Assembly: GCA_964016885.1 (NCBI GenBank)
Contig: OZ024741.1
Coordinates: 323,640,001-323,704,000 of the forward strand
Source: Eledone cirrhosa
Taxonomy: Eukaryota
Length of the DNA: 64,000 nucleotides
Reading direction: 5' to 3'
Positions 1,019-60,500 of the stretch are shown piece by piece; the stretch's first letter is position 1, and every line of letters begins with the position of its first letter. Both the position numbers and the translations under genes were made by a program. The notes below the pieces were generated by a model, which saw only the letters and a program-made list of their open reading frames with translations, searched no databases and was not told the DNA's origin.

Positions 1019-1376
<358 letters not shown>

Positions 1377-14936: not shown

Positions 14937-15722
14937 GGGAGGGTCATATTTGTGTAATAATATTGCCAGAATTAATAACAGAACACACTCACTCTTTGGT
15001 TGGTTTTCGCTTCTGTGTCTTTTATATCGGTTAATTTAATTTATTCGATCCTCAATGTTACCATTGACTGACCAACGGTAAACAATACCGATATAATATA
15101 GACACAAACACATATATATAGTCTAACAAAGTTCTTTCGTTGCACATCTGCAACATCGTCAGTGGTGCTATTATGTTTCCTCCTGTTGTATTGTATGCCT
15201 ACGCCATCTTTATTTAGTCTGTTTATTTATTTATTTATTTATTTTTGCCTTCTTCTCTGCGCATGCGTTTGCGTGTGTGTATTGTGTTTGGGTGATTGTG
15301 TAACAACAAACACATATAAACACACACTAGTAAACTAAGATAGAATACAATAACCAATACACAGTCACCCAAACAATACACACACGCAAACGCATGCGCA
15401 GAGAAGAAGGCAAAAATAAATAAATAAATAAATAAATAAATAAACAGACTAAATAAAGATGGCGTAGGCATACAATACAACAGGAGGAAACATAATAGCA
15501 CCACTGACGATGTTGCAGATGTGCAACGAAAGAACTTTGTTAGACTATATATATGTGTTTGTGTCTAAATTATATCTGTATTTTTGACCGTTGGTCAGTC
15601 AATGGCATCATTGAGGACCGAATAAATTAAATTAACCGATATAAAAGACACAGAAGCGAAAACCAACCAAACAGTCTGTTCTGTTATTAATTCTGCAATA
15701 TTATTACACAAATATGACCCTC

Positions 15723-23127: not shown

Positions 23128-26100
23128 TTATCTTTTTCTCTTAATTTCGAGTATATTTTTTTGACCGGCCACCTTCCTGGTGGCAAGGTTGTAAAAGAAA
23201 ATAAATTGTCATCCCTTGAATCGCAAGAATGTTTTGCAAATTTTGAAGGTGCCAGCTATCGCATCCATTTGTAGACTATGAATTAGGGAGCTGCGCTCTT
23301 TGTCCGCAAATCCAAGTTCAGTCATACTTTGGTCCAAGCGGGTTGGTATAAAACCCGTAGCTCCAATAATGATGGGTATGAAGCTAAAGGTGTATCTTGG
23401 ATACTGGATTTGTAAACTCCTCATCAATGGTCCGTAGATGTCCTCCTTCTGACAACGTTTACATGAAGTGGGCAGCTGATCTCCACAACAGAACACGTTT
23501 TCAATGTGTGGTCCCAAACAAGAATATCAGGCCGGTTGTGCTTTAATTTGATGGCAGTTTTTATTTTCAGTTTCCACCAGTATTCCTTAGTGCCATCTGT
23601 CTCAATATATTCTTCCTCGTTTGTTGCTAATTTTGTTTTCCGAAGTGCGTTCCAGATGGTTCTAGCTATCCCATCGTGTCTCATGGGGAGGTAGTAGCGA
23701 GATGACATTCTTTCGCAGCTGGCAACAATGTGGCTTACATCCTCGATCTTTGTTTTACATAGCCTACATTTATTGTCAGCTGATGGCCCTCCCCTTTTGT
23801 GCAGCAGATATTTGGTAGGGAGTTCTTTTTCCTGTATTGCATAGAGATATCCCTCAAGGTGTGATGTCATAAACTTGTCGGAACTCCATGCCAGGCTTTT
23901 TGAGTGGTTTATCCTCTCTATGGTCTGTGTTTTTACGTCTCAAGTATCCATGCACAACTTTTTCTGTAAATTGGTCAATTTTTTCATCTTCTTTGAACAT
24001 TGAATAGGATCTTCCGATTTCTCTGGGTGATAGATTTATATCAGTCTTTATTCCATATCTCTCCTCCAGATCAGTGGCTATTCTAATGATATGGTCTTTT
24101 TCATGCTCATAAACCTGGGCAAGATGGTTGCCAACCTTTTTTCTCTGTTGAAGATGTTGCTTCAGTGTTACTTTCCGGGTCTCATATGATGTTAATATGG
24201 ATTTTAGACCCCGGCCACCTTCTTTGCGTGAGAAGTATAGCCTATCCACATCACCATTGATGTTAAAGTTCCCAGTAACACTGAGAAGTTTGCGAGTTCT
24301 AACATCCATCTCACTTAGTTCTTGCAATGACCAGTTCAGCAGGCCAAATGTTGGCGTTAGAATTGGCACAGCATAAGTATTGTGCGCAATGTATTTGTTG
24401 TACGCTGATAGTTCTGATGACCATATTTTTTTTACTCTTCTGAGATATTCAGTTCTGGTTCTCTACGTATTTATGGGTCCATCATATCTGACATTCTCAT
24501 CCTGTCCAATATATCTGTAGTTGTCACCTGACTGTAGAGGTTGTATTGTCAGGCCGTTCATCTCTAGATTTCACGTTTTACTGCCAAATATGCACACTTG
24601 GACTCACCAAATTTCATTTTAATGTCTGTTGAAAATTGTGTAATGAGGTCCAATTGTTTCTTGATGTCATTGATATTTGGCCCATACAACTTCAGGTTAT
24701 CAACAAAGAAAAGATGGGAGATACTTCAGGACCCACTTCTTTGTCCACCTTGTTTCCTGAGTAGGTAAGATAGTGGATTTAGTGAGAGAACGAAGAGTAG
24801 CACCGAGTAGCCCTGAAAGATGCCCTTCTGGTAATGTATCTTATCAGTCTTAACTTGCTCCTTCTCACCTCTAAGGATCGAATTGGTGTACCAGTTCTTA
24901 GTCAGACGTTCAACAGCAGCTACCAGAGGTTGTGGGACTTTGGCTAACTGTAAAGCCTTAACAATCCACCCATGAGGTACACTATCAAATGATTTTTGAT
25001 AGTCCAGCCGCACCACAGTCATGTTTCTGCGATTCTTTGTTGTTTTTTCTTGAATCATTTTATTAGTTAGTAGGTAATCTATGCAACCCCACACCTCCCT
25101 CTTTCCACCAGCTTGTTCAGGTGTTATGATGTTGTTGGTAGCACAGTGATCCTGTAAGAACAGGTTAAGGCACCCACTATATAATTTATACATGATGTTT
25201 TGGCAGGCTATTGGGCGGTAATTTTTAGTAAGGGTGGTTTGGCTATTTTGGGGAATGAGGAGAGTAGTGGCAGTTGATAACAATCTGGGCAGTTCCTGTG
25301 GTAAACAGCCGTATGAGATATTACCGATAGAAAGTGAAATACTTCAACCAGTATCCTGTAATGAGGTCTGGGCCTAGTGATTTCCTATTCGACATTTTCT
25401 GTAGAGCTGTTTCCAGTATTGACCCATCTATGTCATATTGTTTTGTCTGGAAATTTTGGCAGTAGTCCTGTTCCAGTTCTTTTAGCCAATTAGTTTGTCT
25501 GTTGAATCCGTCATCCGTTTCCCATACAGATCTCCAGTAGCTCTCAACCTGTTCTTTTGAAGGGGTATCATTTACAGAGATTGAGCTTTTGCCACCGAAG
25601 CTGCGATAAACTGATTTAGGATCTCTGGCAAATAATCTATTTAGCACTTGTCGTTTTTGTGCTGTTGACTTATATTTTAGTATTTCTGTTGTAGCTGTGA
25701 GTTGTTGTTTCAACTGGTGTAATTTGGAGTTTAAAGTTTTAAATTTTGTATCTCCAAATCGTCTCTCTAACCTTTTTTAGGTCTTCCTGGTGTCGTGTGA
25801 AGTTGCTCTCTATGCTGCATTTCATAACGACTGCGATGTGTGAGATACTTCGTCGCAGGGACAACATTTTGCTTTTTAAATTTCGCATCCACGCTGGTTC
25901 AGGCTTTTTGTTTGTATCTTGATTGCGTGGTTTTAGATGTTTGTTATATGATAGCAATGTGACAGCTGAAACATATAACAAAATGTTAAGCGCTTCAAAT
26001 GTCGTTTCTACACCTTTAGATCGTATAGCCTTCAGATAATTGTCAGCTATTTCGTTCACCGCTTCCAATTCCAATTTAGTGGGTTCTTTACTGATTCTGG

Positions 26101-27285
26101 TGTTGTATGGTCTGTCAATCACAATGAGGCTGTGTATCTCTTGAAACATATCGTCCCATATCACTTGTAAGGTGTCCACAAGTTTTTTGGTGTTCTGCTT
26201 GTACAGTAGAGTCATGAATTTCAGCCTCGTTGTTGATGTGGTGACAATTACTACTAGAGTTAGCTGACCATTCTCGCTATTCTTCAGTGGAAGTGGGATG
26301 GATTTCTGCAAAATTGTTGGTGAGCTGTTCACTGTTAGATTTAGCTGGCCATTCTCTTTGTCTGTCAGTGGAGGTGGGGTGGTTGTCTACAAGAGCTGTA
26401 TTTGTAGTATCACTCAATTCCGTTAGATGTATCAATTTACATCTAATGATACGTTTTGCCTGTTCATTTAAATGCTTTGGAGAAAAGTCTAATTCTGGGT
26501 GTTTGGAGTTCCATAAAGTTTTTAGCCTTTGCATAAATCCGAACTTTTGGGGTTCAGATTGTTTGTATGCGTCATATAATTCTTTGTTAAGCTTGTAGCA
26601 CCACTACGATTGTAATTGCGATTTGGTCGAAGGAGACTTGTACGTTTTACCATGATGAGTTCGTCTATTCTCTAATATTTTGTATTTATTTTTCAAAAAA
26701 GTCGATGATCTTCTTTAAAAGTTTCAACAAAGTTCTGTCAGAATCAAATTTAAAGTTATTCACAGCTTGGGTATTATTTCTTTTCAGTTAGTTTTTAATT
26801 CTACAACTGTGTTTTAAACGTTGTTCTTGAATCGTTTGAATCGAGAACAAAAAAAAACGTTACTTAGTATATTTCTTTATGAATGTAATATAATATAACA
26901 ACGCTGTATTTATATGTTAAAGTTTATGTATCATTCATATAAATAGGTGTTCTACAGCTTATTCACAACATATTCACAGTTCAAACACTTATGTTTTTGT
27001 TTCTGAATCGAAAACGTTACTTGCATATTTCTTTACAAATGTAATATAACAACGTTGCTTTTATATGTGAAAGTGTATGTATCGTTCATATATCATAAGT
27101 GTATGTATCGTTCATATAAATAGGTGTTTTACAACACACTTACAGTTCAAACACTTATGTAGAATTATTGTATGTAATCTTACCGCGTAATGTAGCTCAA
27201 CTTTTTCCAATATATGGTATGTTGCCTTCATGTAAGCCGTAATTACACACGTCCGATTATCGGACACTGAGCACAGCGGTCGCCA
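23128..27285 (-). mobile_element. Near-full-length R4/Dong-type non-LTR retrotransposon, family A (disrupted ORF about 26650-23209)
   Basis: NYRPIAC, LDYQKSFDSVPH, KGIFQG, FVDNLKL, CRLC..HIVASC, HNRPDILVWD..VEISCP (REL endonuclease). (TATG)n at 23060-23127 and from 27287. 5' boundary uncertain. Confidence 0.92.
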
Positions 27286-27587: not shown

Positions 27588-27985
27588 AACAAGAGGTGTA
27601 AGTCAAGAGGTTAAAATTAACTTCGTTTATTCATATTCGCTGTTACATATATTTCTGTGATAACAATTAGTCAACAGCTATGACATGATCGGACAGCTAG
27701 TACTTGAACAGAAAAAACAGAAAAACATAATGATGGAAAAAGGTATACTTAAATATATATATATATATATATATGAATGAAAATAAGAATACACAACATG
27801 AAGGTATGGGAAATGAATGGTTTTGTTGTTATTGTTGATGTTACTGTTATAATTATTGTTGTTGTTGTTGGTGTAGGTGTTGTTGTGTTGTTGATCTGCA
27901 TTGATGTTGCTGTTATGATTACTGCTGTTGTTTAAACCCAGGCCAGGCTTCATCAAACGCACAGACGTATGATTGGAGGTATCTT

Positions 27986-28086
27986 ACTGACCTCTACCAA
28001 CAAGTTCTTAAGGGAGATACACTTATACCAGAATGGTTGACATTAGCACAAACATTACTGGTCCCCAAGGACAAAGACACCCATTT
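27986..28086 (+). mobile_element. Inverted internal fragment of R4 family B
   Basis: Reverse-complement match to about 30260-30362. Confidence 0.85.
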
Positions 28087-31000
28087 GTATGTTTTGAGTT
28101 GTATGTGTGCATGTGTATATGCTTTGTATCTTTATATGCAGTTATTAGATGCAAAATTTTTGGAATGTTTTACATATTTTTACTGTTCCATTAATGGATT
28201 GTACTTGTAATTTCCTAACTAGTTGTGTTCTTTCTGTTCCTGTGAAGCCTAGCTTCTCAAGATTTGTATTGAGGCAGTTACTAACATATCCCAGTGCCCC
28301 AATAATCACAGGCATAAATCTGAAGGTGTAATCAGGGTGGAGTATCTGCAGATTTCTCATCAGTTCTGCATAAATATTCTCCTTTTCGCTAATCTTTGAT
28401 ATTATATTGGCATCTGCTGGGCAGCAAATTTCCACTACTGTGCATGTTTTCTTCTCCCTGTCCCATATCATAATATCTGGTCTGTTATGCCTGCATTTTA
28501 TTGGGTTTTTACTGGAACATTCCACCAGTACTCTTTCATATTATGTACATGGATGTCTTTCACATTGTTGTAGCTTTTAATGTGTTTATTATCGGGGCTA
28601 TCTTTTTTACTAACTGCATTGTACAGTGTTTTGGCCACTACATCATGCCTCATAGGTAGATAGTACCGCGATGACATCTTTGGACAGCTGCTGATAACAT
28701 GGGTGATATCCTCGATGTTAGTTCTGCAGAGTCTGCACTTGTTATCACATCTAGGTGTTTTGCCTGCGTCTCTATCTCTTTTGTGAATCAGGTATTTCCT
28801 GCTAATCTCCTGTTCTTGGATTGCAAAAGCGTATCCTTCAAAGTGGGAGCCAATATAGCGGTTGTTGGTCCAAGATAGACTACTTTCCTTATCTATATTA
28901 CTCTCACTCTGGAACTTCCTGGCAACATATCCATGCATGATTTATGCTGATAGGCATGCAGTTTTTCATCCATGGATTCACTGCGATACTGCTGAGCGAC
29001 ATCCCTGGGTGTGAGCTTTTGATTATCACACAGGAAATATCTCTCAAGGAGTTCCTTCCCAACTCTCATGATCTTATCTGTTTCATGCAGATAGACTTGC
29101 TCGAGAAGCGGGCTCCTACGCTTCGAGGTTCGTAGATGTTGTCGGAGAGATATGATGCGACATTCAAATATTGTCTGGACTGATGTTAGACCTCTGCCTC
29201 CCTGCTTACGTTTCAAGTAAAGGCGGTCTATGTCACTGTTAATGTGGAAGTTTCCGGTGTTGTTCAGTATTTTTCGAGTTCCAACATCAACTGCTCGGAT
29301 TTCATCTATCGTCCAATTGAGTATTCCAAACGTTGGTGTTAGGACAGGCACAGCAAACACATTGTGAGCCACTGTTTTGTTTTGCGCAGAGAGTTCCGAT
29401 GACCAGATCTTTCTTAATCGGGTGTAGTATTCCCTGGTTACGCGTTCTTTATTACAGATACCATTATAGGATATGTTCTCATCTATCCCCAGGTATCTGT
29501 AGCAGTCCTCATCAGATATCCGTGAAACAGTTAGACCATTGATAACAATGTTGCTAGATTGGGTTGTTGTTTTTTTTCCGCTTTACAGTCATGTATGAGC
29601 ATTTATCCTGGCTAAACTCCATTCCTATATCCTTTGAGAACGTTGTAACCAGGTCAAGATTTTTCTTCATCCCATCCATGTTCTTGGCATAGAGTTTCAG
29701 ATCGTCCACAATGAAGTTATGGGTTAGGTTCGTATTTCTGTCCTCCTGTGAGCCAATGATGTATCCCTCACATTTCTTGAGCAGAAAGGACAAGGGGTTT
29801 AATGACAAGATGAACAATATCACAGAGAGACTGTCCCCCTGAAATATACCCCTGCAATATTTTATTTCATCAGTGAAAATAGAGTCCTCCCTCTCTGTCT
29901 TTAACCTTAGGATAGTAGCCCAAGAAGAAGACAGCCTCTCTATGGCTCTGACAATAATGGCTGGGACTTTAGCAAGTTGGAAGGCCTCTATCATCCAAGA
30001 GTGGGGAACAGAATCGAAAGCTTTCTTGTAGTCCAGCCAGACTGTAGTCATATTCCTCCTAAGTTGTCGCACCTCCGACATCGCAGTTTTGTTGATTAGG
30101 GGTTGTTCAGCACATCCCCAAACCCTTTTCTTTCCAGCTGCTTGTTCATCTGTGATGATGTTATTATTTTCACAGTGATCTTGGAGGAATAAGTTCGGGC
30201 AGGCTGTATACATCTTATACGTCAGGTTCTTGCATGCAATGGGTCGGTAGTTTTTTGCCAAGTGGGTGTCTTTGTTCTTGGGGACCAGTAACGTTTGTGC
30301 TAATGTGAACCATTCTGGTATAAGTGTATCTCCCTTAAGAACTTGTTGGTAGAGGTCAGTAAGATACCTCCGATAGAATATCAGTTTTTTGTACCAGTAG
30401 CCGACAATCATGTCTCTTCCTGGTGTTTTCTTATCTTGGAGTTTTCCTATCACAGTTTCAAGGGTACCCTCACTTATTTCATATGTTTTTGTTGTAGTGT
30501 AGGAGCAATAGTTCTTTCGGATTTCTCTTAGCCACACTGCATCTTGGTTGAAATTCTTCTTTTCACCCCATATTTTTCTCCAAAAGGAATCTATGTCTTT
30601 CTGGGATGGGGCCTCAGTGACACTTATTATTTTGCCCTTCATATCTCTATAGACTGATGTTTGGTTTCGTCTGAATCTTTTATTTAGCATTTTTCTCTCA
30701 TCTAGCTTCTTCAGGTATCGGCGTTTTTCGCTAACAGCTCTCAATTCTTGTTTGAGGGTGATCAGCTTATATTGGAGAGTTCTGGTTCTACTGTTACCAA
30801 ACATCGTCTCTATTTTATTTTTCACTCTTTGTTGGTGAGGAGTGAGTTTTTTTGTGTTTGTTTGCATGTAAGGAGCATTACCACATGTCCTATGTTTTTT
30901 CGTAGGTCAGCACTCTTTTTTTTTATTTTAGTTATATATGATGGTATTTTTGGTGGTGTTTTGTTCTTGTTAATATCTCTGCTATCATCAAGATACTGCT

Positions 31001-32040
31001 TCACTGTCATTGCTAAGGCATATAAACAAACGTTGATTTGCCAAAATGTTGGGGTTTTTATCCGTCGTAAATATTCATCCCCTATTTCGTCAATAACACG
31101 TAGTATTTCATTATTTGGCTTTTTATTCACCATTGTCATTTTAACACGTTCAACCAGAGAGATATTCATACATGAGTTAATTTCTCTCTGGAAGATTTCG
31201 TTGAGGGAAATTTTCAATTGTTTATACTTTTGATTATCATTATCGATAGTATTTTCCACAACAGTCGAGATAGACTCGGATGGTATACGTGGTGTCACAT
31301 TTATTCGATTATTATCATTATTTCCTCGATTATTATTATTATCGATAGTGTTTTCACCAGCATTCGAGGTAGACTTAGATGGTACACGTGGTGTCAAATT
31401 TCTTACAGGCATAGTTGTTTCAAGGCGCTGTTCGACCTGGCTGCTAGGAAGTCTAGTAGCATGGCGATCTGTAGCACGTGTTGTTGATTCCATGTTTGTT
31501 GTGGGGGACTTACAATTAATCATATTTATCTTATTTTTACGTTCAACAAACGTCGCTTGTTGGCGTAATTGTTTCGCTGTGAAATAATTTAGCTCTGGGT
31601 GCATTTCGTCCCAGTGTAGCTTCATTCTATTCATATAGCCAATGGAGGGATTGGTTTTTGCCATTTTATAACAATTAAATAAATCATTATTAAGTTCGCA
31701 ACTCCAAGAGAAATGCGATTTATAATTTCGCTTTCTTCTGTAGCTACAACTGAATAAAGTTTGATTACCTTCTTTGTTATTTGTCTTCGATACTTCCTTA
31801 ATTTTCTTGTTGATGTTGTGTTCAGCCATGCCGTTTGTAGCAAATCCTTGTAAAATGAATTATGTATTTAGTCGGATATCTCTACGAATTCGAATAAAAG
31901 GTGTCTTCAGAAGGGATAGTTAGAAGAATAACCAATTATTCAACCAGGCTGTAGTTGTGGCATTACTGTCGGAGATAGTATTCATCTTAAATTTAATAAA
32001 TAGTCTCCCACGGCAAAATATGCGACTGATCGCGTTGACT
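28087..32040 (-). mobile_element. R4/Dong-type retrotransposon family B, copy 1 (frameshifted ORF 31829-28145)
   Basis: WLDYKKAFDSVPH, RGIFQGDSLS, IVDDLKLY, CRLC..HVISSC, RHNRPDIMIWD. 5' end abuts (TATG)n at 32045-32124; distal 3' UTR missing. Confidence 0.95.
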
Positions 32041-32138
32041 GACTTATGTATGTATGTATGTATGTATGTATGTATGTATGTATGTATGTATGTATGTATG
32101 TATGTATGTATGTATGTATGTATGTGTGTATGTATTTA

Positions 32139-32747
32139 TGTCAGGTCACCAGTTGGTGCTACTGGTAACATGTATCCCAGTACAACCTGTCTCATGGTCG
32201 GGTCGTTGGCGACTAAACTGGCAACCCCACCAAGGTTTCTTGGTGAGGAGGGTGACTTTGGACATCCTGCAGGACTAAAAACAAAACCTGTCAAAGAGCA
32301 AAGGAGCTCTTAAGAGTCAATGGCCATCCAAAATCACCGGGAGAGATGACCCTTTAGCCTTTGTCAAGGCAGAATTCTAGGAGAAGGAAAATTCTGATAT
32401 AACACCTGCAACCCTGATGGTATCCAATGATGTTGACTTGTTCTTCTTTTTGGTAAATGTCATCTTGGTTAAGAGAGTGGGACTGGCTTTGTGCAGTTCC
32501 TTTGCTCACTATAAAAGCTTCACGGCACAGTCATTGCTTTATATCTGGAGATCTCTCTGCACTTGTCAACACATGGTTCCATGGGCCCAGCACTATGTGT
32601 CAATAATTGTCACAAGTGTAGCATTTGTACCAGAGTTTTCAAGTGGTTGGCTGGACTAAAAATCACACTCGTTCAGCGCATCGGTAGGGGTTCTCCTACA
32701 TGGATATAAAGTAGTGGCCGTACTCGAAAACGAGTTGGCAGCCACCA
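32139..32747 (+). mobile_element. Bipartite non-autonomous RTE-derived element with (TGTA)n tail
   Basis: RTE-type 5' UTR motif TCTAGGAGAAGGAAAATTCTGA, no ORF, terminal hairpin ACTCG-AAAA-CGAGT then TGTA repeats. Confidence 0.6.
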
Positions 32748-33195
32748 TGTATGTATATATGTATGTATGTATGCAAGTACGTACATGCATACATGCATAT
32801 GAAAAAAAGACGGTAGATTTATCTTCAAAGAAATTCTAAGAACCATAAGAAGCTAGAAATAATGTCTAAATACATGTCTGAATGAAAGAAATTTGCCATT
32901 ATATAGAATGATGTCTTGCTTGGAGCAATTGAAGAACTGTACTATGGATGATCTTCAACTATTCATTGATTAGACTGATTAAACTATTGGAAAGTTTGCC
33001 ATAAGTAATGTATATATTCTCACATTTATGATAATTTTATCTTCCAGCTTTTCTTTCATATTTGTGAGTGTGTTTCTGCATGTATGCATAAATATGTACT
33101 TGTACACACACACACCCACATATATATACTCTCTCTCTCACACACACGCACACATATATATGTATATGTATGTATATGTATATATATATATGTGC

Positions 33196-33278
<83 letters not shown>

Positions 33279-34074
33279 AAGTGGAATTGGAAATAGCACG
33301 GAAAATATATTTAAAGATCTGTCTTTCTTTTTTATTCTTTGATTCGTCAAAGTGACATTATTGAAACAATGAGATGAACAATTCTTAAAAAAAAAGGACT
33401 TTCATAATGTATATAAAATATACATTATAAAACTACTTTATATAATAATAAAGAAACACTTGGGAAGAACACTATAGTGAAGAATATCAGGTCTACGAAA
33501 CGTATGATAAATACATAATAATTAAAAGGTTAAATTAAAATTTACAGACCCTCCTTTATAATTATAAAACACTTAGACAAACTCAAAGAGGAGAATGTTT
33601 CGCCATAAACAGTGTCGGTACCATAAACTCTCAGGGCTCATCGGCAGATCTAAAGACGATATGGTCGAGACTTCAGACAATTGATATATCGCACATGGTG
33701 AGAGAAGAAACGAAAACATGCACGCCAGACAGTACATACTGGCTTGAATGTATAAAAAAACCCGCTGGAAATAGCAGCCTATAACCATTCAAATTAAAAA
33801 GCTTAACTAACTTAAAGAAATGTGTTAGGAGCCAAAATATCAAATGAAAAACGGAGTTAAATATACACGTTAATCCCCTGTAATTTAATGAGTTCAAGGA
33901 ATAAGTACCGAACTCTTCATAATACACTCTAGTGGTTCTATATTCCTCGTAATTGAAAAGATACCTCTTTTTTCTGTTTTCTTCTCTATACTGTATATGT
34001 ATGTCGAGAATCAATCGACTTTCGTCAAATCTGACCCAGCAAACAACGTTTCCATTGGTCTTTCAAATTGCTAA

Positions 34075-34110
<36 letters not shown>

Positions 34111-34114
<4 letters not shown>

Positions 34115-35824
34115 CGAAGGAATGTGGTAAGGAACCAGGTGGACCATAACGCACCAAAGTACTCAATACTTAGGGTAGTAGAGTGGGTAATAGGAACGAA
34201 TAGGGCCCCGACGGCTGAGCTCAAGCCGTTTCGACGGCTAATTCTGTACTGAATAAACATTTATTCTGGTATTTAAATAGCCGAGCTTATCAAGGGGTAA
34301 TTCCATATATGGTCGAAGAGATAATGACCAGGATTGGTCACATCACAGGTTAGTAGTAAATCTGTGATGGCAAATTGGTGGGGGATGGGGTAGCTAAACC
34401 TGCCGGTAGGAGAAAAAGGGAGAGGGGTGGAGTAGACCCATTCATGCGTTGGTAGTGCCAGCTACAGCTGGGCGTGAGGTCAAAGAAGATACTGGGGAGG
34501 GGGAGGGGGAGGAAGTCGAAACGGTAAGTAGAACAATGAAAGGTAAAACTATAAAAGGTACTGGGAGAGAAAAAAATAAAATAAGCAAAATCTGGTTACT
34601 AAGACTTAAGTCTCTCGCTATTGCTAGGCTAAAGAAATACATAAATAAATAAACAAATAAGTGAATAAAAGAATAGATAAATAAATTTTAAAAAAAAATA
34701 TATATATAATGAAGAATAAAAAAATAAATAATAATAATAATAAAAATAAACTAGGTGGGACGGAAATAAAGGGACCCTTATACGAGGTATAAGTGCGTGT
34801 ATCGTACGGTGACGGGTCAACAAAGGGGGGGGGGGGGCAAAATACTAAAGAGACCACCACGAAATAATAAAGGTTTCTACCCCAATCACAGGGCCAGCAA
34901 CCACCCAGTGCAAGAAAGTAAACTAGTACGAGAATATAATTCAGGGTCCCGCAAAAAAATACTAGTGCTAACTCTAAGGGTACCGCCACGGAACAAAAAG
35001 TCTTATACAAGCTACATGAAAGATCGTAAGAAGTAAAAGTAAAGAACGGAAATTTAATACAGAAACACCCCCCCCCCCAAAAAAAAAAAAGGAAAAAGAA
35101 GAAAGAAATACTGGATAAACGAGAAATTAAAGCAAAGATGCCACTAAGAAATATAGAAGGCACGGAAAAGAGTGACGGCGGTCGGAGAAGGGGGCGAGTA
35201 TCCAAAGTCTAACACCTCTGCTATAAAAAGCGGAGTCAGCCAAATCTATCATAGAATAGGGGAGGGGGTGGGGGTGCTGAAGCTACAAGGGACCGAGGGG
35301 CTACCTCGGGTGGGCGAGAAAAAGACGACGACAAAGAAAAAGAAACTGCGGTAGAAGGACTAGGGAGGGATGGGGGTAAGGAGGAAATATAGAGGAAGCG
35401 ATAAAAGAATGTAAAAGAAGATCTTACGTCTCCATTGGCAAGCAGGGGTTACCCATTACAAAATAGGCAAGTGGGGTGTTATAGCCCTAGTCTACCCCCC
35501 CCCCCCCCCCCCCCGGGTCATTATGGGGTTTGAGGGCGAGGTAGGTCCTACGTAATCGGTGTTTACATGCACTAACCAGTTCATCTTTCTTGTTTAGGAG
35601 TTGGTCCGTCGAAAACAGCATTTGTAAAGTTTCCTCCGAGCATAAATTGCACGGACGGCGTCCTCCCGTGTAAGAGTTGGCTCTGGACAGTAATTTCCAA
35701 GTGAGATCATAATTGATGTTGTTGTCCTTGAGGTCCCATATGTGGCCCGAAAGTGTAGTGGCGTGACGCCGGGCCGGGTTTCGGAAGCTATGTCTGTGTT
35801 GGTATAGCCGGGTCTTGAAGTCGC
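34111..35824 (-). mobile_element. 5'-truncated Penelope-like element: GIY-YIG endonuclease C-terminus, long 3' UTR, hammerhead
   Basis: FKTRLYQHRHSF..TTLSGHIWDLK..WKLL..CNLCSEE..LLNKKDELVSACKH (35824-35487); (TA)n at both ends. Confidence 0.85.
34205..34298 (-). ncRNA. Type I hammerhead ribozyme, U3-A8 core variant
   Basis: CCCC-UUGAUAA-G..CGGCUA..GAAUAA-AUGU-UUAUUC..UAGCCG.C-GAA-ACGGCU-ugagcuc-AGCCGU-C-GGGG; GUC at 34212-34210. Confidence 0.8.
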
Positions 35825-35837
35825 TATATATATATAT

Positions 35838-36636
35838 CTTCTCTGACTTCTTAATATTCTCTACCAGATATTTCGTCTTAATCTCATTCATTCTCATCCC
35901 CACGCTCATCGACACAGTCTCTACCCCCTGCATCAAATCTTCTGCCTCCTTCACTGTGTTTGACACCAAAACTATGTAGTCGGCAAATTGAGCATCCGAT
36001 ATCTTTTTCGCCTTAACTCTCCTGCTCTGAACCGGTGTTACAGTAAAGCCAGAGTCCTGGTGTTTCTCCAACGCAAAGCGCATACAATAGTCCACTGCGA
36101 TGATAAAAAAGGTAGGGAACCAATGTATATCCCTGGAGCACTCCAACCAGTATCTCAAAGAACTCATCCCATGACTTCCTGTATTTGGGAGCAAAGATTG
36201 GGAATATGGATGATGATGTAGTCGAGAGGAAGAGCAAAGCCTGGGCGGCTTGCCACAGCTTGTGATCGGTGTGGAAGTCGGATCTTCGTGAAGGACCTGA
36301 AGATCCGCCTCTTCGTTGCTGTAGTGGAGTCTGTGCTGCTGTAGATGTCTGAGACTTGGACACTGACCAAGAAACTCACTCAGATGCTGGATGTGTGCTA
36401 CACGAGAATGCTGAGGATGGCTCTGAACATTAATCAGGATATACCGAGGAAGAACTCTGAGCTGTACGGGAGCCTCCCAAAAGTGAGCTCAAAAGTGACA
36501 CAGAGGAGACTGAGGTTAACATATGTTGATGCCCTAAGGACAGACACTGGTCTCTTGAAGACGCAGGACATCGCAGCGATAATGAGGGACTGAGACTGCT
36601 GGGGAGAACTCGTCCATGGATCTCGAGAATTTGACC

Positions 36637-36638
<2 letters not shown>
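35838..36638 (+). mobile_element. 5'-truncated RTE-type LINE with 5' inversion
   Basis: 35838-36169 minus: GVLQGYTLVPYLF, FADYIVL, KTKYL. 36171-36638 plus: DFLYLG, KAWAACHSL, ESVLL, ETWTLT. (CT)n tail. Confidence 0.85.
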
Positions 36639-36701
<63 letters not shown>

Positions 36702-36754
36702 GTGAAAGAGTAAAGAATAGCATGGTCGGCTGTACAAAAAGGGTTTTATTTACT

Positions 36755-37045
36755 ATAAAAGTAAAGGAGAGAAGAGGGCTCTATGTATAGTACAGAGCTA
36801 TTTAAATATGTAATAAACAACACAATATAATTATCCCATTATCCAAGGTTTCACGAAGACAGGCGACCCCAACAGAGGCTTCCGAAGTCGTTCATCGGAA
36901 GGAAAATTCTGACGAACGACTCTGTTGGGGGTCACATTACTTCGTTAAACCTTGGGTATTGGAATAATTATATTGCGTTGTTTATTACATAATTAAATAG
37001 TTCTGTACTATACATAGAACACTCTTCTTTCCTTCACCTTTTCTA
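36755..37045. repeat. Imperfect inverted repeat (about 120-bp arms) with decayed hammerhead motifs, in (TA)n
   Basis: CTGACGA at 36909-36915; arms carry (G/T)AAACCTTGG(G/A)TA. Confidence 0.7.
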
Positions 37046-37387: not shown

Positions 37388-40300
37388 GTTTTCTTTATTA
37401 ACCACAAGGGTTTACATAAAGTAGACATTAAGGACAGTACAGGACAATACAGGACGGTACAAATGGGCATTTCTGCGTGTAAAAAAACAGAGGATGTAAT
37501 AAAATAACAAAGAAAAATTCCCCAATAGGGGGGAGATTTCCGAGGGACATTTGTGGAGAAAGCACATTAAAAGACCACAGTGACGCTGACCACCAGGGCA
37601 AGTGCCCTCTCCCAGTTTTCCACCTTTAATTTACAGACACATACTCAGAGTAGGCCCATTCACTCGGGCCATACCTGCTTCTCTCACCCATCTTTCAACA
37701 AAATGCTGGGAAGAGAGCACTTCCCTCTCTACCCTGATTTTCCTTTTCAAATGAAATTTGAAAAAGTTAATCAGGGCATCACCGAAGAGGTAAGTGCTCG
37801 TCTTCAGCCCTTTCAAATGTGTCCACCATACTATCTCTTTCGCCATGGCCACCAGACAGATAAAAACTGCCTGCCCTTCCCGGCTAAAGGAAGGGGGCGG
37901 GGCAATCCTCACGATGGACTCAGCTGATAGCTGGATTCGTCCTACACGTGACAGCAGGTGTTCGACATAAACCCACAAGTCAGCAATGCTCGGACACTGG
38001 ACGAGTGCGTGCAGGACGGTTTCGTCGCCCTGCGCGCATCTCGGACATGCCCGGCTGACGGCACCTCCATGTCTGTAGAGTTTATCCCGAACTGGCAAAG
38101 CTCCCCGGTAGCACTGCCAGGCCAGGGATTTCTGGAAGTTGTCCATAGGCCCCGACCCGAAAGTCCGTCCGAAGAGATTGGCTAGTTGATTTTCGTCGAC
38201 GCCTAGAATTTCTCCAAGTGCGTCGTCGCTCTTCCCCTCCACTAATCCTCTATAGAACGCCAAGGTGGAGTTTCCACCGATCACATTTCCCGATTGGTCG
38301 AGGGCTGTGAGCGCCTGAAGAGATTCCAGTCTCCAAGCGCTCCCTCTCGGTCTTCGCTTGACCCAGGACTGCAGCTCCGTCAAGGAGACGAGCTGGGGAA
38401 AGACGTGTCTAGCAAACGGCGACCACACCTGATCACCGTCGAGGAAGAGGTGGATATGTCGTAGCCTGAGCGCGTGTCTGCGCATCATCAGCCACGGCAT
38501 GCCCAGCCCTCCACGTAGCGGGTCTTGACAGCAGATGGACCGCCTGACCATCGGAGCGCGTCCTTTCCACAAAAAGCGAAAGAACAAACGCTCTAGCGCA
38601 GTCAGGAGGGCGGTAGTAGATGACGGACGCGATGTACGCGTTAGCCACCTCCGCTCAACCTTTCAGGGATATCTTCCTCTCCGCCCATTTCTGGGTGAGA
38701 GAAGCCACCCTGCTCGTCACCTCGTCCCAGTTTTTGTCAGTCTGGAGGTCCGGACCGAACCAGACCCCTAGCAATTTAACCGGTCCGTCCGTCCAGCGCC
38801 CGACGACGCTGTTGGACGGCATGGACCTGCCTCTCCAGGTGCCGAGCTGCAAGCCCACTGACTTTTCCTGGTTGATCATTGATCCTGTCACCGCTTCGTA
38901 TTCTCTTAGTCTAGTGCCGATCGCCTCGATGTGTTTGGCGTTCGACACCACTACGGTGACATCGTCCGCATATGCTGACACGGATCTTCCGCATCCTAGA
39001 TCGCGCGGGACCCCCCTCAACGTCTCGAGTTTGTGCAGTAATGGCTCGAGAGTCAATACGTACAAAAGGGACGAGAGGGGACATCCTTGGCGGACCGAGC
39101 GCATGATGTTGAACGGTTCCGAAAGGTGACCGTTCACTCTCACCACAGAGTAGATGTCGTTGTGCATGGCAGCGATCCAGCCTCTGAAGACGGGCCCAAA
39201 GCCTGCCGCCCTCAGGACTGCCGCTAGGTAACGATGGTCGACCCTATCGAAAGCTTTCGACTGATCTAAATTTATCAAGGACCCACCCATGCCAGGTTCC
39301 CTAGCTACCCTCTCTACGATGTATCGCATGAGGTGGAGGTTGTCGTGGATGGATCTGTCGGGAATGACGCATGTCTGCGCCTCTCCGACCAGAACACCAA
39401 CGACAAGCGCCAACTTCTTTGCTAGCACCTTGGCCAAAATCTTGAACTCTGTGTTTAGCAGAGTTATGGGCCTAAAATTATCTATGTTATCCCCCTTGTT
39501 CGGATCCTTTCTCAGCAGCGCCACCGCTCCTCGGCTCACAGAGCTGGGAATTCTCCCGTTCTGTTGTCAGTTGCAGTAGACGTCCGCCAAGAGGCCTCCG
39601 AACAAGTCTGGCATTTGTACGTAAAGTTTATAGGGTAGACCATCCAAACCAGGTAATTTACCCCTTGTGCAGCCAGTCATTGCCTCCCGTACTTCAGCGG
39701 CTGTTATCGGTTTTTTGCAACACTCCGCCTCAGTGGCCGAGAGCCGCGGCAGTCCGTCGAGGTAGACACTAAAGTCCATCCTCGATCCGGCCCGCCGCTG
39801 CCCCGGAACAGTTGAGCGAAGTGTCGCTGAAAAGCTTCACACATTTGCCCGGGATCGAGTAGCATACGCCCGTCGTGGTCCACCAAAGACCGGATCGTGG
39901 CTTTGTTGCCACGACGCGCCTCCGCCACTCGGGCCCATTGAACGGCTTTCGTCCCCTCGTGTCTGCGAGCACGCACCCTAGCTCTGACAACGCAGCCTTC
40001 GTGCTTTGCATTGAAGAATTGGTCAAGGGCCAATTTCGCCGCAAGTACGTCGGTCGCGATGCCTTTGCAAAGCGCCTCGTCTAATTTTCTAACTAATTCT
40101 CCCTCTGCTCTATTTTTCTCTATTGCTAAAGCCTTACTAAACCTAATGGACTCTATTCTAATTGCTCTTTTCAGAGCAAACCACCACTTGTTGTTGACGA
40201 TGGCCCCCGTCAACGCCCGCTTAACTAGTTCGCTAATCCGGTCTCTGTAGGCCTTGCGCGCTGGTAAGGACGTGTTTAGCTTCCAGTAGCCGGGTCCTCG

Positions 40301-43300
40301 TCTATGAAGCCTATCTAAGTCAAGCACACAGATCACGAATTTGTGGTCCGTGTAGCTGACTATCTTGAATTGTGGACAGCCTATGCTAGACCTATCTATT
40401 TCCCTACAAAATACTCTATCTAGATATGATCTGGATGACCCTATGTTGTTTGTCCAAGTCTACATTGGTACATTCGGGAAATCCAATCGGTACCTGTCAG
40501 ACAGTTCAAAACGCCTGAGCAGGTTGGTGAGACTCTTGCACCCTCCTCCCCTATCCACTAATCCCACACAGTCCCTGCGTGCATCTAAGATCCCGTTCCA
40601 GTCGCCCACTAACACTAAAGAGCGGGAAGTTCCAAGAAAGGTCTCCAGACGCCGGAAGAAATCAGGCCGCCCTGCTCCTGTCGTGGCATAGACGGCCACT
40701 AACCTGAAAGTTTGCCCGTCTCCGCTGGTCACGTCCGGCACCACCAACTTACCTTCTGGGTCCAGGAAGATGGCCCGTATGGCAAGATCCAAACCTCTCC
40801 GAAAAAGCACAGCAACTCCACCCCCTGATCCCGGACGGCTGGGAGATGCGTACACATCGTAGCCGCCGAAGATTGGTGCGAAGGCCCGTGCTTCGGAGAT
40901 TCTGGTCTCGCTGATGGCCACTACATCTATGTTTAGTGACCTGAGGTCGATGAGCAGGTGGTCCTGCTTCCATGACGACCCCAAGCCACGCGCATTTATG
41001 CTGCCTATTCTGAGTGAGGTCATGTTGAAAAGGAGTGGAAAAGATGGGAAAGACCACTTACCTTACTTCTCGTAGAGGAAGGACGGTTTTTCCATCCTTT
41101 TAACTGCTTGTGTCCTCCTCAGGAAGGATGTCCTTATAAATCCTCCTGGAGAGTGCTTGTCGGAAGTCTCAGAAGTCTTTGGGGAATTTTTGTTTTAGTG
41201 TCATGTACGTTTTCTGTGTGATGCGAGTGATTTGTATGTGTGGAGGTGGTGTGAATTTTTGGTTTGTTGTGTAGTCTTTTTCTGTGATGCTGGTGTTGTG
41301 TTGGATGTAGTGTAATAATTGGTTGTTGTTCAAATTTAATTGTTTCTACTTTAGGCACAAGGTCAGCAATTACCCAGTGCATTACTGGTACTTTATTTTA
41401 TCGACCCCGTAAGGATGAAAGGCAAAGTTAACCTTGGCGGGATTTGAACTCAGTCCGTAAAGGGACGTAACTATGCTGCAAAGCATGGCGTCCGACCCTC
41501 TACCGATACTGCCATGTTCAAATTTAATGCTGTGTAGTGTGTATCGTTTTGGTTGTTTTGTTTGCGTTTGCGTTTGTTGTGGGTTTGTTTCTGTTTCGCA
41601 TTTTGGTGACTTTTGTGGTGTAGGTGATGGTGGTGTTGGGGTTAATGATGGTGATGGTGTTGGTGTTTGGGGTGATGGGGTTGGTTTTGCTGGTGTGGAT
41701 GGTGGAATATCTGTCCTAACTTTTTTGTTTGTTAATTTATTTGTTTCCCTCTGTATTTTGTTTTTGGAGGGGGAAGGAGAGAATTTTTTCTTTTTTGGTT
41801 TCTTTCTTTTTTTTTCCTGATACCGTTTCCCACTCCTCGTCGTCACAATCTGTCTCCAGTTGCGATAAGCCGGGGAGTGGAAAATCCTCCACAGGCGTTG
41901 GTTTTGATTGTGGCGTGGTGGATGGTGTAGGCGCTGGTGCTAGTTCTGGCGCGTTGGGTGGTGGTGGTGTTGATTTTGCTACTGTTGCCGCGGTTGTTGC
42001 TGTTATAGTTGCTTCTGTTGTTGCTGCTACAGTTGTTGCTGCCATCTCTGCTACTGGTGGTGTTGATGGTTGAGTCACTGGGGTAGGTAGGAGAGGTGGC
42101 CTCAACCTTTTAGCCTGAGGGCAGAAAGCCCTTAGGTGGGTTCCTTCACCACAAACGACACACCTAGGCCTTCTGCCCTCGATAATTACGGTGAGGTGGC
42201 TGCCGTCAGTGAGGTCTATTACCTCTGGGATCTCCTCAATGCTTTTTTGGTCTGCTTGGATCAGGAGCTCCATCCCAGATCCGGACCAGTTCTCCTGCTT
42301 TTCTTTTGCTATTGCTATTATTTTGGTGTTGGCTTCGATGCCGGCGAGGACGGCCGCTATTAGCCAGGGAATTTCGATGGCCTGTGGAACGTGGGTCACC
42401 CTGATTTTACGAGTCTCTGGCCACAATAGCTTGGGACGAGTGTGAAGTCGTCACTTCTTAATGGGGCCATGGAGTGTTCTCTAGCCTCCTGTGGTGTTTC
42501 AAAGAACACGTCCACGGTTCCATACTTCTGCCCACGTCTGATGTGTGTTTTTCTTGCCCACACATGTCCCAAAGCTTTTTTGATTTGGGACTCGGATGCC
42601 CGTTCCACTCGGCGCGATTTTACATTAATTGTTCGATACGACACGGTGCATAGGCGCCGATTGGTCCATTTTATTAGGTGGGGTGAGGGGGTGGGGGCTG
42701 ACGTTGTACCCATCTTTCTTTACCATTTTTTTTGTCATTTTCTAATTCCTCCTGAGTTATCTGAAATGCTTCGCACTGTTTTGCTACTCTGGCAAAACTC
42801 AGGGTGGTTTTTTTAATGTCATTGTTGCTGTTGTTGTTATCGTTATTTTTGTTATTATTAATTTTAGCTTCAGTTGTGGTGGTGGTGATGTCAGTGGTGT
42901 TCGGTGGGGAAGAGTCCATTTTGGTTGAATTCATTTCGACATCACGAGTTAATTTATTTTTTTATTTTGTTTCTGTTGTCGCGATGGTGGTAGGGGTGGT
43001 GGTTGTCGCGGTGGTGGTGGTGGCGGCTTTAACACCTGCAGTCATTGGTAATGGCGGGAAATGAATGTCTGCCTGAGACAAATTTAAAATATTGCTACTG
43101 CTTATATTTTTTTTAGTGTTGGCAAACGTAGTAACATTTACAATGGTGGTGTCGGTGTGAGGTGTTAGTTTGTGTGGAAGGCTCTCAGCTGCTTGGTGCA
43201 GAGGTGAATTAGCCATTTTTTCTCAAAGAAATTTTTTGATAATCATAAAAGTTTAAATTTTGGGCACAAGGCCCCAATCTTTTTGGGTGTACTTTCTGGA

Positions 43301-44458: not shown

Positions 44459-44462
<4 letters not shown>

Positions 44463-44668
44463 ACGAAGGAAATGTGGTAAGGAACCGGGTGGACCATAAC
44501 ACACCAAAGTACTCAATACTTAGGGTAGTAGAGTGGGTAATAGGAACGAGTAGGACCCCGACGGCTGAGCTCAAGCCGTTTCGATGGCTAATTCTGGACT
44601 CAGTTTATGTCCAGAATTAGCCGTCGAAACGGCTTGAGCTCAGCCGTCGGGGTCCTACTCGTTCCTAT
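44459..44668 (-). mobile_element. Solo Penelope-like pLTR fragment with fold-back
   Basis: Near-identical to 34111-34250; IR about 44541-44599/44609-44667; in (TA)n. Confidence 0.8.
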
Positions 44669-57533: not shown

Positions 57534-60500
57534 GGCGACCTACGTAGTAAATCGTATCATCGTGAGCTCCGCAAAGATTTGTTATTTTCAGTTGTTCAAA
57601 ATTGCCATTCATGGAAAATTTTATTGTTAATTGTATATAAGTGCACATACATTGTTATCTGAAAAGGACACCCAAAAAGATTGGGGCCTTGAGCCCAAAA
57701 TTTAAATTTTTATAATTATCAAACAAAAAATTTTTCTTTGAAACATCATGGCTGACTCGGAGTCACTCCTTTCTCACAAACTAACACCTCACACCGATAC
57801 CACCATTGTAAATATTACTACGTTTGCCAACACTAAAAAAAATATAAGCAGTAGCAATATTTTAAATTTGTCTCAGGCAGATATTCATTTCCCGCCATTA
57901 CCAATGACTACAGGTGTTAAAGCCGCCACCACCACCACCACCGCCGCGGCGGCCCCCCACCACCACCGCGACAACAGAAACAAAAGAAAAACATAAATTA
58001 ACTCGTGATATCGAAATGAATTCAACCAAAATGAACTCTTCCACACCGAACACCACCACCACAACTGAAACTAAAATTAATAATATCAAAAATAACGATA
58101 ACAACAACAGCAACAATGACATTAAGAAAACCACCCTGAGTTTTGCCAGAGTAGCAAAACAGTGCGAAGCATTTCAGATAACTCAGGAGGAATTAGAAGA
58201 AGCCAAAAAAATGGTAAAGAAAGATGGGTACAGGGTCAGCCTCACCCCCCACCTAATAAAATGGAGCATCGGCGCCTATGCACCGTGTCTTATCGAACAA
58301 TTAATATAAATTCGCGCCGAGTGGAAAGAGCATCCGAGTCCCAAATCCAAAAAGCTTTGGGACATGTGTGGGCAAAAAAACCCCACATCAATCGTGGGCA
58401 GAAGTATGCAACCGTGGACGTGTTCTTTGAAACACCACAGGAGGCTAGAGAACACTCCATGGCCCCATTAAGAAGTGACGACTTCACACTCGTCCCAAAC
58501 TATTGTTGCCAGAGACTCGCAAAGATCAGGGTGACCCACGTTCCACCGGCCATCGAAATTCCCTGGCTAATAGCGGCCGTCCTCGCCGGCATCTAAGCCA
58601 ACACCAAGATAATCGAAATAGCGAAAGAAAAGCAGGAGAACTGGTCCGGATCTGGGATAGAGCTCCTGATCCAAGCGGACCAAAAAAGCATTGAGGAGAC
58701 CCCAGAGGTAATAGACATCACTGACGGCAGCCACCTCACCGTAATTGTCGAGGGCAGAAGGCCTAGGTGTGTCGTTTGTGGTGAAGGAACCCACCTAAGG
58801 GCCTTCTGCCCTCAGGCTAAAAGGTTGAGGCCAGCTCTCCTACCCAACCCAGTGACTCAACCATCAACACCACCAGCAGCAAAGATGGCAGCAACAACTG
58901 TAGCAGCAACAACAGAAGCAACTGTAACAGCAACAACCCCAGCAACGGTAGCAAAACCAACACCACCACCACCCAACGCGCCAGAACTAGCACCAGCGCT
59001 TACACCATCCACCACGCCACAACCAAAACTAACGCCTGTGGAGGATTTTCCACTCCCCGACCTATCACAATTGAAGACAGATTGTGACGACGAGGAGTGG
59101 GAAACGGTATCAGGAAAAAAGAAACCAAAAAAGAAAAAAATTTCTCTTCCTTCCCCCTCCAAAAACAAAATACAGAGGGAAACAAATAAATTAACAAACA
59201 AAAAAGTTAGGACAGATATGCCACTATCCACACCAGCATCACCAACCCCATCACCCCAAACACCAACACCATCACCATCATTAACCCCAACACCACCATC
59301 ACCTACACCACAAAAGTCACCAAAATGCGAAACAGAAACAAACCCACAACAAACGCAAACAAAACAAAACAACCAAAACGATACACACTACACAGCATTA
59401 AATTTGAACAACAAGCAATTATTACACTACATCCAACACAACACCAGCATCACAGAAAAAGACTACACAACAACCCCAAAATTCACACCACCTCCACACA
59501 TACAAATCACTCGCATCACACAGAAAACGTACATGACACTAAAACAAAAATTCCCCAAAGACATCGGAGACTTCCGCCAAGCACTCTCCAGGAGGATTTA
59601 TAAGGACATCCTTCCTGAGGAGGCCACAAGCAGTTAAAAGGATGGAAAAACCGTCCTTCCTCTACGAGGAGTAAGGTAAGTGGTCTTTCCCATCTTTTCC
59701 ACTCCATTTCAATATGACCTCACTCAGAATAGGCAGCATAAATGCGCGTGGCTTGGGGTCGTCATGGAAGCAGGGCCACCTGCTCAACGACCTCAGGTCA
59801 CTAAACATAGATGTAGTGGCCATCAGCGAGACCAGAATCTCCGAAACATGGGCCTTCGCACCGATCTTCGGCGGCTACGATGTGTACGCATCTCCCATCT
59901 GTCCGGGATCGGGAGGTGGAGTTGCTGTGCTTTTTCAGAGAGGTTTGGATATTGCCATACGAGCCATCTTCCTGGACCCAGAAGGTAAGTTGGTGGTGCT
60001 GGACGTGACCAGCGGAGACGGGCAAGCTTTCAGGTTAGTGGCCGTCTATGCCCCGACAGGAGCAGGGCGGCCTGATTTCTTCCGGCGTCTGGAGACCTTT
60101 ATTGGAACGTCCCGCTCTTTAGTGTTAGTGGGCGACTGGAACGGGATCTTAGATGCACACTGGGACTGTGTGGGATTAGTGGATAGGGGAGGAGGGTGCA
60201 AGAGTCTCACCAACCTGCTCAGGCGTTTTGAACTGTCTGACAGGTACCGATTGGATTTCCCGAATGTACCAATGTAGACTTGGACAAACAACATAGGGTC
60301 ATCCAGATCATATCTAGATAGAGTATTTTGTAGGGAAATAGATAGGTCTAGCATAGGCTGTCCACAATTCAAGATAGTCAGCTACACGGACCACAAATTC
60401 GTGATCTGTGTGCTTGACTTAGATAGGCTTCATAGACGAGGACCCGGCTTCTGGAAGCTAAACGCGTACCTACCAGCGCGCAAGGCCTACAGAGACCGGA

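Follow-up and report, generated by a model that had tools for sequence, protein, structure and literature searches.

A hammerhead-shaped motif with a changing 3-8 core pair in a Penelope-like element: a proposed assisted ribozyme and reverse-transcription landmark

The window analysed here is a 64-kb stretch (G000:C2:323640001-323704000) of a 3.0-Gb genome, and its minus strand carries, at 34304-34193, a hammerhead-shaped motif with a complete type I layout. The motif is carried by Penelope-like elements (PLEs) of one very abundant family, and the pair between core positions 3 and 8 differs between the subfamilies. Copies with a C.A mismatch at this pair were likely parents of younger copies, so that fast self-cutting is probably unneeded for jumping. 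We assign a probability of about 0.55 to the reading that the motif is a slow ribozyme, assisted by dimerization or by protein, and a landmark for reverse transcription, and not a fast stand-alone cutter.

A type I hammerhead had been predicted on this strand, and every element named in the original prediction was found (Table 1). The required type I core (U4 G5 A6 N7 A9, G12 A13 A14, A15.1-U16.1, H17, and G10.1-C11.1) is complete in the window copy, which also has a Watson-Crick 3-8 pair (U-A). Folding of a 101-nt stretch gave the three-way junction in both the minimum free energy (MFE) and the centroid structures (-26.6 kcal/mol, z -2.15, 5 of 200 shuffles equally good). When 117 nt were folded, the same structure was retained, yet z was only -1.26. 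The three-helix junction opens at stem I in both the MFE and the centroid structures. A relaxed descriptor that accepts any Watson-Crick 3-8 pair had a single match on both strands of the 64 kb, namely this motif. The Rfam covariance-model search of positions 32000-37000 returned no hammerhead family among its 47 matches at E<=10, indicating that standard scans miss the motif; the expectation that scans based on CUGANGA would overlook the UUGAUAA core was thus borne out. Two predicted parts required adjustment. The stem I strands CCCC/GGGG are present, but stem I is longer than described and continues through an internal loop into GGAAU/GUUCC pairing; the fifth stem I pair of the family (A-U) is absent from the window copy, which has C at 34205. 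Similarly, the stem II cap GAAUAA/UUAUUC exists in the window copy but is not family-wide, since 5 of the 21 UUGAUAA copies closest to it have this cap and 60 other copies all lack it. Loop 3 is, in addition, a palindrome (UGAGCUCA) that the original prediction left unmentioned.

Table 1 Positions of the motif and of its host element in the window.
Feature	Position	Strand	Basis or remark
Penelope-like element copy, truncated at its 5' end to the last ~1.7 kb of the ~3.6-kb unit, flanked by (TA)n runs	34113..35822	-	
C-terminal part of the GIY-YIG endonuclease and stop codon	35487..35822	-	matches the C-terminus of the 717-719 aa ORFs of locus L202
3' untranslated region	34305..35486	-	in full units, separates the ORF stop from the motif
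Stem I, 5' strand: distal GGAAU, proximal (A)CCCC	34294..34304	-	fold; kept in 10 subfamily majorities
Proximal stem I strands CCCC and GGGG	34297-34294 and 34209-34206	-	sequence
Core U3 U4 G5 A6 U7 A8 A9 (UUGAUAA)	34287..34293	-	sequence; family counts
Stem II	34233..34286	-	G10.1 34286 / C11.1 34233, CU/U internal loop
Stem II helix CGGCUA/UAGCCG and variable ~37-nt distal part	within 34233..34286	-	
Stem II cap GAAUAA/UUAUUC	34266-34251	-	minor branch only
G12 A13 A14 A15.1 (GAAA)	34229..34232	-	invariant in 10/10 subfamily majorities
Stem III: A15.1-U16.1 and CGGCU/AGCCG	34211..34229	-	strands 34229-34224 with 34216-34211
Palindromic loop 3, UGAGCUCA	34223-34216	-	sequence and folding
Predicted cleavage site, after C17 (34210) of GUC	34210/34209	-	hammerhead numbering
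Stem I, 3' strand; its end is +17	34193..34209	-	3'-end counts of scored copies (see text)
80-nt tail; its end is +97	34113..34192	-	3'-end counts of scored copies (see text); window copy ends here

On its sequence features, the host is an endonuclease-bearing (EN+) PLE with the predicted motif in its pLTR. A Penelope-like host with a GIY-YIG nuclease had been proposed, and we found the RT/GIY-YIG ORF, the pLTR, tandem units, the tail, and the microsatellite target. The window copy is 93.7% identical to the unit of locus L035 over 1,723 columns. Full units have a single ORF of 717-719 aa with RT, cysteine linker, and GIY-YIG in this order, as judged from motifs read by eye; the intact ORFs of 717 and 719 aa show, again by eye, a YRDD motif and the nuclease motif VIYQC..C..AYIG, which is preceded by the cysteine linker CNCPDRSICPLDNRC. 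A Pfam search assigned no family to the intact ORF. Among 8,000 scored sequences, 2,018 were homologues of the ORF at E<=1e-20, and none of the 120 matches listed from these was named as a PLE. A cysteine linker between RT and EN has been described for both the Neptune and Nematis clades (PMC8557442; here and below, the cited papers are represented by the available parts of their text). The linker of this protein is of the Neptune/Nematis type, and a resemblance to the Hydra clade, as PMC8557442 describes it, is seen in the DKT and RWR motifs. Full units occur as partial tandems with inverted 5'-truncated partners, an arrangement described for PLEs (PMC8557442).

The motif sits ~1.2 kb past the stop codon and ~190 nt upstream of the ATG of the next unit. 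This position of the ATG, ~190 nt 3' of the predicted site, indicates that the motif is non-coding pLTR/5' UTR. An 801-codon open frame of L035 that spans the 3' half of the motif was rejected as a frameshift artefact, because the ATG of intact copies lies ~190 nt downstream, and an upstream ATG frame over the 5' half of the motif is altered by a 2-nt indel between subfamilies (by eye). Locus L202 (G000:C1:91479000-91488500) is a head-to-tail array of at least four near-identical ~3,543-bp units (C1:91.476-91.487 Mb), two of which have intact ORFs (717 and 719 aa), and it is a candidate active copy.

To count the states of the 3-8 pair, we used an exact pattern in which positions 3, 7, and 8 and two internal-loop bases were left free. 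The genome contained 4,933 matches, counted as motif matches and not as insertions (each inverted pair adds two, and old copies are under-represented with an exact pattern); the reversed control gave 0. U3-A8 was the family majority (3,634/4,933). Position 8 was not A in 59 matches, only 4 of which had C3-G8. A8 was accompanied by a base other than U at position 3 in 1,240 matches, and 97 of the 100 listed from these were C3.A8; the Watson-Crick 3-8 pair is therefore broken in these 1,240 matches and in most of the 59. An older subfamily, which lies mostly outside the pattern, had 654 matches, and among the 100 listed all had U3 and 98 had A8. Since U3-A8 is the majority and C3-G8 occurs in only 4 of 4,933 matches, U3-A8 is not a product of decay, and decay from a C3-G8 core was ruled out. 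The claim that the window copy inherited U3-A8 and did not mutate twice is thus supported, and CUGAUGA was not the family consensus over the 4,933 matches. The proposed 3-8 covariation holds in the sense that U-A is the family majority, but it is not strict: C3.A8 makes up about a quarter of the matches, and U3.G8 is found in an older subfamily.

The remainder of the core was nearly constant. Ten subfamily majorities were built from 219 distinct copies, and U4, G5, A6, A8, A9, G10.1, C11.1, GAAA, and GUC were unchanged across them, while N7 was A, C, G, or U. Variation between the majorities was seen in the two bases that follow G10.1, in loop II, and in the internal loop of stem I, and no covarying contact between loop I and loop II was visible by eye. 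Along ten single representatives, the core changed once (a private change) in 12 columns and N7 changed four times; the 30 stem columns had 8 changes, and the 76 other or loop columns had 91, gaps included. In a 13-row alignment, the proximal stem II helix was 100% paired in the rows with letters, and in subfamily R, the oldest, one of its G-C pairs is replaced by A-U. Of the stem cells, 93.4% were paired and 4 pairs had changed on both sides, a result reached by 0 of 500 shuffles; it is a soft result, because two parts of the alignment are misaligned, namely its retrozyme row and row R at the 3' end.

The tree built from the ORFs of 42 copies (two smaller trees had 35 and 40 rows) formed a ladder in the order Q, P, O, E, D, C, B, and then A and Y. 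The core is UUGAAGA (U3.G8) in Q, UUGAAAA or UUGACAA (U3-A8) in P and O, UUGAGAA (U3-A8) in E, CUGAGAA (C3.A8) in D and C, and UUGAGAA and UUGAUAA (U3-A8) in B, A, and Y. UUGAAGA had 13 exact matches, 10 of them with common flanks, and two more sequences of the Q type have other bases at position 8. Forcing the 16 D and C copies together was rejected (p-AU 1e-57). Therefore, the C.A copies are not monophyletic, and the U-A subfamilies B, A, and Y are nested among them; Q, P, O, and E lie on one side of D/C and B, A, and Y on the other. Private ORF substitutions amounted to 0.035 in Q, 0.021 in P, 0.019 in O, 0.015 in D, 0.012 in E (n=1), and 0.012 in C, and to 0.012 in B1, 0.011 in B2, 0.009 in Y (n=1), and 0.007 in A among the younger groups. 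Because these values drop along the ladder, Q was taken as the oldest. The tree backbone across D and C totals ~0.05 substitutions per site, and full units with C.A at both ends exist (L128). The U3 of B1 is surrounded by C-type loops, which favours a point change over recombination.

The root is less clear. With distant protein outgroups, it fell in or beside the C.A copies, at group D, and formed an open fork; the DNA outgroup gave a similar picture. Dating on the short motif region gave 0.026 for D, 0.023 for C, and 0.021 for O, making D and C as old as or older than O. The more diverged subfamily R was the oldest by tail divergence (0.100); three of its 5' halves were found, two with UUGAUAA and one with UUCAUAA. 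The tail of Q was young (0.019; n=4, picked via the exact pattern), unlike its ORF. R is known without an ORF, and its place therefore rests on shared flanks. The order of 3-8 events given by the ladder is thus likely but not certain; under either root, C.A elements were likely the parents of U-A elements. The succession U.G, U-A, C.A, and U-A along the ladder implies that copies with a mismatch likely acted as masters. The U.G wobble and the protonated C.A wobble are alike in geometry, so that all 3-8 states of the family are pyrimidine-purine pairs.

The C.A phase might be only apparent, either through pairing of C3 with G7 in a core that is shifted (CUGA-GA-A) or because C.A transcripts were cut in trans by older U-A cores in dimers. 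C3 did arise on a G7 background (CUGAGAA in 97 of the 100 C3 matches listed), but C3 has one origin, and the link to G7 is therefore not independent evidence. Mixed dimers would be permitted by the palindromic loop 3 and the near-constant stems I and III. Such an apparent phase would leave the U3.G8 of subfamily Q unexplained, and a core lacking N7 is unsupported in the available parts of the literature examined; we regard it as very improbable.

Five young Y-type matches (C1:204526935, C2:339802752, C3:180627671, C3:311969395, and C4:61517053) read UUGAAGA followed by GAU, two changes from UUGAGAA. They possibly represent a second, recent U3.G8 branch.

Folding predictions, which used nearest-neighbour energies only and left out tertiary contacts, were compared for monomers and dimers. 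Stem III, which at 5-6 bp is long for an animal PLE, had pair probabilities of 0.5-0.8 in the isolated motif. The core-open fraction of the monomer was 0.27 for the window copy and 0.01-0.51 for six subfamily majorities, and a rival hairpin, AGCCGU-CGAA-ACGGCU, is able to bury GAAA. In a 300-nt context, the probability of stem I was 0.08 for the window copy and 0.17-0.57 for four other copies. The predicted dimer, which forms via the palindromic loop, reached -73.5 kcal/mol against 2 x -28.5 kcal/mol, i.e. ~16 below two monomers, and both of its cores were open.

These predictions bear on whether the motif is instead an efficient monomeric ribozyme, the original prediction carried further. The tandem transcript would then be cut to unit length, ligated to a circle, and reverse-transcribed round into arrays, and wobble 3-8 pairs would be active enough. 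Such a circle model, with a tandem transcript and reverse transcription, has already been proposed (PMC4209133), and the head-to-tail array of four units at L202 accords with it, as does the 591-bp retrozyme-like repeat described below, which shares the architecture and shows U3-A8 in 99 of the 100 matches listed. The pair probabilities of stem III also suit a monomer, and the bulged extension of stem I could dock on loop II. However, the low core-open fractions, the competing hairpin, and the weak stem I in context all speak against it, and C.A masters amplified more than 1,200 motif copies. We consider efficient monomeric cutting unlikely.

Insertion ends relative to the predicted site were also examined. 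Among the 197 scored copies, 80 ended at +16/+17 and 77 at +96/+97, immediately next to (TA)n; in 18 cases, a TA run was absent within 200 nt. Position +17 is the last base of stem I. +17 and +97 are likely the first and second starts of reverse transcription. If so, cDNA that was begun at +17 or +97 and contains the core would have read through an uncut or re-ligated predicted site. Many insertions are short fold-backs with 5' ends concentrated 26-50 nt upstream of the predicted site, where loop II and the 3' strand of stem II lie (~150 of 259 short matches, a set with imperfect de-duplication and reference-edge artefacts). Old-subfamily copies chosen by their tail alone contained the core in 1 of 32 cases. 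The same 259 imperfectly de-duplicated matches showed no 5'-end peak at the predicted site (2 at +1, 3 at -1, and 2 at +2), which further weakens the case for efficient monomeric cutting. By eye, exact +1 starts on (TA)n accounted for 3 of ~11 simple junctions among the 100 matches listed; they are a weak hint of cut templates.

Fold-back stubs are apparently what this family produces most often. Two of them lie in the window (1065-1263 and 44460-44668), between (TA)n runs; each joins an inverted arm, with its end at +17, to a forward arm that runs to +97, and both arms of each are broken off inside stem II/loop II.

The coincidence of the +17 end with the end of stem I would also fit a catalytically dead relic, in which the fold is kept only for recognition by protein and the +17 start is set at the foot of stem I. 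The Watson-Crick 3-8 pair was broken twice in successful lineages, and a deep mutational scan of a type III hammerhead found 3-8 rescued by the G-C swap only, U3-A8 giving no rescue (PMC9901934). On the other hand, fixed U4, G5, A6, A9, G12, A13, A14, and GUC with a free N7 are the pattern expected of a catalytic core, and the 3-8 pair is always pyrimidine-purine in the subfamily majorities and returns to U-A. A dead relic therefore appears improbable.

In the slow, assisted ribozyme that we favour, the protein of the element would bind the tandem transcript at the motif, nick the (TA)n DNA, and begin cDNA at +17 and +97. The reverse transcriptase would pass the uncut or re-ligated site, and since this read-through would be needed, fast cutting would abort the insertion. 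Positions 3 and 8 would require only a pyrimidine-purine pair, with wobble tolerated and U-A mildly preferred. Any cutting would likely occur between two motifs that pair via the palindromic loop 3, or with the help of protein. Besides the uncertain root and the weak hint of cut templates, two points count against this explanation: the return to U-A together with the fixed core suggests that catalysis is under selection, and the literature reports U3-A8 swaps to be active in vitro (PMC3088659). Tentatively, and at somewhat less than even odds, we further propose that a master lineage mutagenised its own 3-8 pair (U-A, U.G, U-A, C.A, and U-A) with the other core bases fixed, and that its C.A masters, with more than 1,200 motif copies, founded all younger subfamilies. 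Either the protein would make wobble cores catalytic, or cleavage would be dispensable in vivo and the fold would serve as a start signal and brake for reverse transcription.

The U3-A8 core itself is not new. It has been published by Perreault et al. (2011) and, in Penelope elements, by Cervera and De la Pena (2014). Natural hammerheads with the same compensatory U3-A8 pair were described in PMC3088659, and the available part of that paper reports neither subfamily-wide C.A or U.G nor an ordered series. U3-A8 also occurs in the Cercyon PLEs of Schistosoma mansoni (~1,300 hits), whose motifs include UUGAUAA and UUGAAAA (PMC4209133). The present motif resembles these minimal hammerheads in its type I layout, pLTR location, U3-A8, G10.1-C11.1, palindromic loop 3, and likely use as a dimer; minimal motifs of metazoan PLEs showed low activity in vitro (PMC4209133). 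It differs from the Cercyon hammerheads in having a stem III of 5-6 bp with a loop of 7-9 nt, which is absent or small there, a stem II internal loop after G10.1-C11.1 with a ~37-nt distal part, and whole subfamilies with C3.A8 or U3.G8; unlike the metazoan minimal motifs, it has no extra base between A9 and G10.1 (PMC4209133). PLEs of fungi and protists carry type I hammerheads with a large helix III, and the Serpula motif cuts as a monomer (PMC4209133). These share with our motif the long helix III and the varied sizes of helices I and II, and tertiary contacts have gone unrecognised in those PLE motifs, but they reside in endonuclease-less, telomere-linked PLEs, whereas the motif predicted here has a palindromic loop 3 and belongs to an endonuclease-bearing animal element (PMC4209133).

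The Poseidon element of Anolis carolinensis offers a further comparison. Its catalytic mutants left insertion in vitro unaffected, cutting required protein, and RNA-seq ends were absent at the ribozyme site (PMC11167929; Frangieh et al. 2024, as far as its available part goes). Both elements have a hammerhead at the pLTR-ORF junction, AT-rich targets, and two internal starts of reverse transcription that bound a tail (PMC11167929). Poseidon has a C3-G8 core, an ORF start inside the ribozyme, and a tail of 30-40 nt (PMC11167929), whereas the element here has its ATG ~190 nt downstream, an 80-nt tail, and a cysteine linker of the Neptune/Nematis type. In the literature searched, in which subscription papers and supplements were covered in part, we did not find subfamily-wide C3.A8 or U3.G8 cores. 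What is likely new is C3.A8 in about a quarter of the matches, U3.G8 in an older subfamily, and the mismatch masters; the long stems of a motif in an animal PLE with an endonuclease are a further addition.

The reason for hammerheads in PLEs has been stated as unclear (PMC8557442). A U3-A8 core alone would merely add one more host. The family described here combines a natural 3-8 series in an otherwise constant RNA with an intact ORF (L202) and mapped starts, and the role of PLE hammerheads thereby becomes directly testable.

A 591-bp non-coding, retrozyme-like tandem repeat was found on G000:C1 (e.g. L180:1490-2100 and L165-L184), in arrays of up to 8 units. Its core gave 5,951 exact matches, and 99 of the 100 listed read UUGAUAA. 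Its stems differ (UCCUC/GAGGA, GGCA/UGCC, and palindromic UACGUA), its palindromic stem III is shorter, and outside the core it shares only short DNA matches at chance level with the PLE. Animal non-LTR retrozymes have been described as PLE derivatives, and the shared motif architecture is expected if retrozymes derive from PLE pLTRs (bioRxiv 10.64898/2026.07.22.740005, available part). Unlike retrozymes, the motif at 34205-34298 is part of an autonomous element with an ORF. Canonical CUGANGA hammerhead-like motifs were seen in neighbouring repeats (L032, L031, L036, L052, L070, L076, L112, L146, and L159). In L146 and L159, the motif precedes a related ORF motif by ~290 nt, suggesting that sister Penelope families use C3-G8.

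The repeat search of the window was dominated by microsatellites. Other elements in the window include a broken non-LTR retrotransposon at 27678-31859 (-) and 25739-26603 (-), with an RT domain at 29554-30906 (RVT_1, E 2e-21) and a cysteine-rich, nuclease-like region downstream. An inverted LINE-like pair with endonuclease and RT frames occupies 37528-42661 and 58268-63095, its members being 90-97% alike over ~5 kb. The (TA)n run that hosts the Penelope copy adjoins, at 35823-36600, fragments of another RT-encoding element (RVT_1, a weak match with E 0.016), and short fold-back elements of other families lie beside (TA)n runs at 36820-37040 and 14991-15675.
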